From Escherichia coli (GTDB lineage: Bacteria > Pseudomonadota > Gammaproteobacteria > Enterobacterales > Enterobacteriaceae): a stretch of 53,280 nucleotides of DNA. The stretch lies in the NCBI RefSeq assembly GCF_003334355.1, contig NZ_QOWP01000028.1; one strand, written 5' to 3'. The position numbers and the translations under genes were made by a program. Shown here piece after piece: positions 41,188 to 41,207 of this stretch. Within the stretch, counting starts at the first letter, position 1, and every line of letters starts with the position of its first letter. The notes beneath the pieces were generated by a model. It saw only the letters and a program-made list of their open reading frames with translations, ran no database searches and was not told where the DNA came from.

Positions 41188-41207
41188 ATTAAAACAGTGT
41201 TCCATTA
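41188..41207. promoter_or_regulatory. Candidate KdgR operator upstream of kdgK
   Basis: Imperfect palindrome attAAAACAgTGTTccat centred about 75 bp upstream of the kdgK ATG, resembling the KdgR box as I recall it; not verified against a position weight matrix. Confidence 0.3.

Follow-up and report, generated by a model that had tools for sequence, protein, structure and literature searches.

A probable KdgR operator upstream of kdgK in the kdgK/pdeH divergent region of Escherichia coli

The 21-bp imperfect palindrome at 41187-41207, in the spacer between the divergent genes kdgK and pdeH, is very probably (with a probability of about 0.9) the operator by which the IclR-family regulator KdgR controls the kdgK promoter. 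An operator of this kind had been proposed for kdgK at this place in a first-pass annotation of the same DNA, and the proposal is supported by the rank of the site under a KdgR weight matrix, by its uniqueness across the spacer, by the invariance of its half-sites among orthologous loci, and by published kdgR genetics. The window, by which we mean the whole stretch of 53,280 nucleotides that was analysed, is E. coli chromosome: the 701 bases around the site have a match at 95% identity or more in 5,423 of 5,426 complete E. coli genomes, with 100% identity in strain 504239.

Results

The locus and its features are collected in Table 1. The spacer between the two genes, 41122-41352, has the length of 231 bp that had been claimed for the divergent region, and the palindrome described there is present, with ATTAAAACAGTGTTCCATTA on the + strand at 41188-41207 and AAAACAgTGTTcc at 41191-41203. 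Its dyad centre at 41197 lies 76 bp from the kdgK ATG, in good agreement with the distance of some 75 bp first given. The sigma28 promoter that had been assigned to pdeH could likewise be recognised, with 0.01 chance matches expected per window; 70 bp separate it from the box, and the two do not overlap. The box of K-12 MG1655 is identical in sequence to that of the window, and a window position w corresponds to position 3679419 + (41121 - w) of NC_000913.3. A scan of 40900-41600 against Rfam at E <= 1 returned no RNA family, so that an RNA element is not supported. Elsewhere in the window, the annotation of the closest record, NZ_CP025859.1, has four tandem Ldr-family type I toxin genes and frameshifted bcsQ and bcsZ, features known from the annotation of that record which correspond to approximately 19013-20569, 24564-25308 and 30280-31385 of the window.

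Table 1. Features of the kdgK/pdeH region, in window coordinates.
Feature	Position	Strand	Description and basis
kdgK	40192-41121	-	Regulated gene, 2-dehydro-3-deoxygluconokinase; ORF and RefSeq annotation
kdgK start codon	41119-41121	-	
Putative -10 element, CAAACT	41155-41160	-	CACACT in most genera; CAAAAT also occurs
Putative -35 element, TTGACC	41178-41183	-	3 bp past the 21-mer in all loci; invariant in the 81-region alignment
KdgR box, probable IclR-family operator	41187-41207		21-bp imperfect palindrome TATTAAAACAGTGTTCCATTA, centre 41197; consensus, matrix, orthologues
kdgK-proximal half-site	41189-41195		TTAAAAC on + strand, GTTTTAA in kdgK orientation; invariant in 27/27 distinct sites from 81 loci
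Central triplet	41196-41198		AGT on + strand; R-N-Y among orthologues
kdgK-distal half-site	41199-41204		GTTCCA on + strand, TGGAAC in kdgK orientation; GGAAC invariant, flanking T in 26/27
A-rich tract	41208-41222	-	GGCTCAAAAAAATAA in kdgK orientation; adjoins the box upstream; columns at least 95% conserved in 81 sequences
Sigma28 (FliA) promoter of pdeH	41278-41304	+	TAAAGTTC-N11-GCCGATAA; one consensus mismatch
pdeH (yhjH)	41353-42120	+	c-di-GMP phosphodiesterase; ATG at 41353; ORF list and RefSeq agree

KdgR boxes have been described for E. coli genes of the regulon in the comparative genomics of Rodionov et al. 2000 and 2004 (PMC6958661, PMC5559549), and the published consensus credited to that work is AAATGAAACAnTGTTTCATTT (PMC5559549), with which the kdgK box agrees at 15 of the 20 specified positions. 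For other genes reported to belong to the regulon, the K-12 regions were retrieved, and the consensus was used to select boxes upstream of kdgT, kduI (two boxes), tabA, yeeO and ygjV, from which a strand-symmetrised weight matrix was constructed with kdgK excluded. Scoring with such a matrix, in which a low value would have spoken against the proposed operator, gave 20.0 bits for the 21-mer at 41187-41207 (p = 8.8e-8 per position), with a matrix of only six training sites that were themselves chosen for likeness to the published consensus. At this score 2e-5 hits are expected per spacer, 0.005 per window and 0.4 per genome. The kdgK box ranks first among the 53,260 positions of the window, the runner-up scoring 12.7 bits, and the 20.0-bit result was stable to a larger pseudocount, to a four-site training set, and to a spacer-like or 70% A+T background. 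None of 5000 shuffles of the spacer reached the score of the kdgK box. The runner-up, CAAATTAACCTTGTTTCATTT at 1518-1538, agrees with one half-site only.

The alternative that the true operator maps elsewhere in the spacer was also tested. Apart from registers that overlap the box, all other spacer positions score at most 2 bits, and the operator is therefore not to be sought elsewhere in the spacer. A comparison made independently of the consensus, in which spacer 17-mers were matched to seven other regulon upstream regions, has its maximum at 41188-41206, where the summed score of 90 stands about 4 sd above the mean of 71.8 (sd 4.5). The 13-nt palindrome taken alone, with one mismatch allowed, is expected 0.84 times per window and occurred at least once in 53 of 100 shuffles. 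A short palindrome of this kind is not improbable by chance, and the whole site therefore had to be tested; the significance of the element rests on the KdgR-box score of the full 21-mer together with its conservation, and not on the short palindrome.

Conservation was followed in a footprint set obtained from a single search of genomes with the KdgK protein sequence, which gave 80 loci at 85-99% protein identity from many genera of the Enterobacteriaceae, including Escherichia, Citrobacter, Salmonella, Enterobacter, Klebsiella, Kluyvera, Kosakonia, Lelliottia, Leclercia, Phytobacter and Atlantibacter; the set covers loci of at least 85% identity. When 300 bp upstream of kdgK were scanned, the best matrix hit lay 74-80 bp from the kdgK ATG in 80 of 80 loci, a Salmonella locus (L026) among them, and the orthologous boxes had a median score of 19.7 bits. 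Conservation within the box is dyad-symmetric: GGAAC and GTTTTAA (kdgK orientation) are unchanged across 27 distinct sites, and the triplet between them is polymorphic within Escherichia itself, where ACT, AGT, AGC and GGC (kdgK orientation) all occur. In the 81-sequence alignment the spacer beyond the conserved part diverges freely. Invariant arms about an unconstrained 3-nt centre are as predicted for a dimeric helix-turn-helix repressor, with the central triplet probably making no contact with the protein. One emphasis of the first-pass annotation did not survive this comparison, namely that on the central CAgTG, which differs between species; the recognition elements are instead the outer half-sites TTAAAAC and GTTCC. 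About 40 bp around 41196-41198 are invariant despite the polymorphic triplet. The conserved A-rich tract upstream of the box may extend the contact with the repressor or act as a UP-like element.

The kdgK box has much in common with the other K-12 boxes (kdgT, kduI, tabA/yjgK, ygjV and yeeO), with which it shares the organism, the regulator, a position upstream of KDG- or hexuronate-related genes (KDG being 2-keto-3-deoxygluconate, the substrate of KdgK), the 21-bp dyad, the (A/G)AAAC-N3-GTTT(C/T) arms and an A/T-rich context. By location too it belongs with the KdgR boxes, being near the putative promoter of kdgK, a gene that falls under KDG, hexuronate or pectin catabolism. It differs from the other K-12 boxes in having G for A in one arm (TGGAAC) and the mirror T for C in the other (GTTTTA), and its 20.0 bits place it just under the six training sites, whose scores run from 21.3 to 30.1 bits; further, kdgK has a single box where kduI has two. 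The pel, kdgT and kdgK operators of Dickeya dadantii (Erwinia chrysanthemi) share with it the consensus AAATGAAACAnTGTTTCATTT, an orthologous repressor, the inducer KDG and the logic of repression (PMC5559549, PMC8688573), but the Dickeya regulon includes secreted pectinases and its binding has been measured in vitro, whereas E. coli is without pectinases. In K-12, the KdgR/PlaR-type box assigned to yeeO, AAGTGAAACCACATTTCAAAT (21.3 bits; 7678-7698 of region L086), falls within the gene as annotated, some 150 bp into its coding sequence, and this suggests that the start codon is mis-set or that the site is intragenic. For eda, the highest-scoring box-like site upstream, TTTTGAAACACCGGTCCAATA, is weak (13.3 bits; 5096-5116 of region L084) and lies inside the 3' end of edd, about 340 bp before eda.

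Between the box and kdgK, TTGACC-17-CAAACT is likely to be the sigma70 promoter of kdgK, of which the -35 element is good and the -10 element weak. The -10 element follows TTGAC(C/G) by exactly 17 nt in 79 of 80 orthologues, though the intervening sequence varies. A scan of 41050-41420 for sigma70 promoters and terminators found nothing, which is explained for this promoter by its agreement with the consensus at only 8 of 12 positions (3 of 6 in the -10 element), and with the scan empty it is from conservation that we infer the promoter. If it is correct, transcription would start at about 41148, with the centre of the box at about -49 and the box extending from about -59 to -39. The weak -10 element and the empty scan make it uncertain how box and promoter are placed to each other, and simple steric repressors typically bind closer to the start than a centre at about -49, which counts against our preferred explanation. 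Literature searches found no experimental kdgK start, the SMRT-Cappable-seq supplements having no kdgK entry, and for the kdgK promoter only a Salmonella reporter-library preprint that gives no start site. An alternative -10 element, TAATAT at 41186-41191 inside the box, was considered and set aside, having no credible -35 partner (only AAAAAA or CAAAAA). Whichever of the two promoters is the true one, the box overlaps its core elements or lies directly against them.

Two other kinds of site were considered in the spacer. A perfect small dyad, TGGTCAACCA at 41177-41186, covers the putative -35 element and resembles TGGTnnACCA, which we take to be the core of ExuR/UxuR-type sites; most orthologues have TAGTTGACCA in its place, so that the dyad is not conserved, and it was rejected as an ExuR/UxuR site and is probably due to chance. 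Inspection by eye gave no convincing match to a CRP-like site in the spacer.

Discussion

Genetic work of the 1970s already made kdgK a classical member of the KdgR regulon. In an E. coli kdgR mutant the mRNAs of kdgK, kdgT, eda and kduD are raised on Northern blots (PMC6958661), and in laboratory-evolved E. coli that has lost kdgR, RNA-seq finds kdgK, kdgT, kduD and kduI over-expressed (PMC6892915). In Salmonella, Northern blots detect no kdgK mRNA without KDG and strong induction with it, and deletion of kdgR makes kdgK constitutive (PMC4784465). Both derepression in kdgR mutants and induction by KDG are therefore documented for kdgK in the literature (PMC6958661, PMC6892915, PMC4784465). 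In Dickeya, the binding of KDG frees KdgR from its operators (PMC8688573). In the literature consulted we found no experiment on direct binding of purified E. coli KdgR to a kdgK fragment, and PlaR (YiaJ), a paralogue of KdgR, is the only protein with reported in vitro binding at the kdgK region (PMC6958661).

These data are consistent with a simple model of repression. A KdgR dimer would read two half-sites in inverted orientation, TGGAAC and GTTTTA (TGAAAC and GTTTCA in the consensus), across three bases that carry no sequence constraint, and is predicted to do so at exactly 41187-41207. Bound there, KdgR would block the -35 region and the A/T-rich region upstream of it and thereby keep RNA polymerase off the promoter, an occlusion mode that we predict from the arrangement of the sequence elements. 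Accumulation of KDG would then lead to its binding by KdgR, whose affinity for DNA would fall, and kdgK would be transcribed.

It could be argued that the palindrome has no function at all, since its 13-nt core is of a kind to be expected about once in a window of this size. The full 21-mer is of quite another order, both in its expected frequency and in the failure of any shuffle to reach its score, and its arms are invariant over 81 loci against the free divergence of the neighbouring spacer; score and conservation together exclude chance, and this explanation is effectively refuted. It is very unlikely that the A/T-rich block is instead a part of the kdgK core promoter, as a UP element or as the TAATAT -10 element, with its likeness to a KdgR box being incidental. 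The block does sit where a UP element would relative to TTGACC-17-CAAACT, and TAATAT within the box is conserved, but dyad-symmetric conservation that fixes the arms and leaves the 3-nt centre free is not what a promoter element predicts, TAATAT has no -35 candidates other than the poor ones given above, and a chance expectation of 0.005 per window for the matrix score speaks against incidental likeness.

A KdgR operator also has to be weighed against other regulators and the other gene. Genomic SELEX with PlaR has kdgK among its targets and gives the PlaR box as ATnTGAAACnnnGTTCAnTT (PMC6958661), with which the kdgK box agrees by inspection in its core arms and 3-nt spacing. Given the near identity of the two boxes and the in vitro binding, the kdgK site may take a second, minor input from PlaR. 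That the box is mainly a PlaR operator, with an effect of KdgR that is indirect, for example through the reported cross-regulation of plaR and kdgR, is improbable, even with plaR mRNA raised in the kdgR mutant (PMC6958661). The genes reported as raised in the plaR mutant are yiaK, kduD, eda, glpA and glpT, with kdgK not listed among them, whereas kdgK is raised in the kdgR mutant (PMC6958661). Further, in Salmonella it is KDG that induces kdgK and deletion of kdgR that renders it fully constitutive (PMC4784465). The prototype PlaR operator in the plaR-yiaK spacer, ATTTGAAATCAAGTTTCGCAT, is almost identical to the kdgK box in half-site core and spacing and also serves an IclR-family regulator, but it reaches a much lower score with the KdgR-type matrix (13.5 bits against 20.0), and the reported effectors of PlaR are ascorbate and galacturonate, whereas that of KdgR is KDG. 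It is highly unlikely that the box serves the divergent pdeH, beside kdgK or instead of it, so that KdgR would couple sugar acids to c-di-GMP and motility. The two genes do have the 231-bp spacer in common, and of the 74 orthologous spacers, out of 81, that carry a sigma28-type promoter on the opposite strand, 67 have the sigma28 -35 element 79-83 bp from the centre of the box. Against this, the box is centred about 80 bp upstream of that -35 element, some 115 bp away from the start expected for pdeH, and pdeH is absent from the genes reported as over-expressed on kdgR deletion (PMC6892915). Klebsiella-type loci (L052, L058 and L059) have lost the sigma28 promoter and have kept the box and the putative kdgK promoter, and this retention, with the absence of pdeH from the genes so reported, indicates that the box belongs to kdgK.

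A broader role, in which the box is a joint input of KdgR (responding to KDG) and PlaR (responding to ascorbate or galacturonate), with its occupancy perhaps also modulating pdeH across the compact spacer, in which the sigma28 promoter keeps a roughly constant distance of 80 bp, is very improbable in our view; if it were true, the supply of sugar acids from plants would bear on motility and on the turnover of c-di-GMP. As a KdgR operator the kdgK box is an ordinary element, already known from comparative genomics and regulon studies, and it adds little beyond a confirmation of the annotation. What is gained is a precise 21-bp site, the identification of the outer half-sites as its constrained bases, and a likely geometry for the kdgK promoter.
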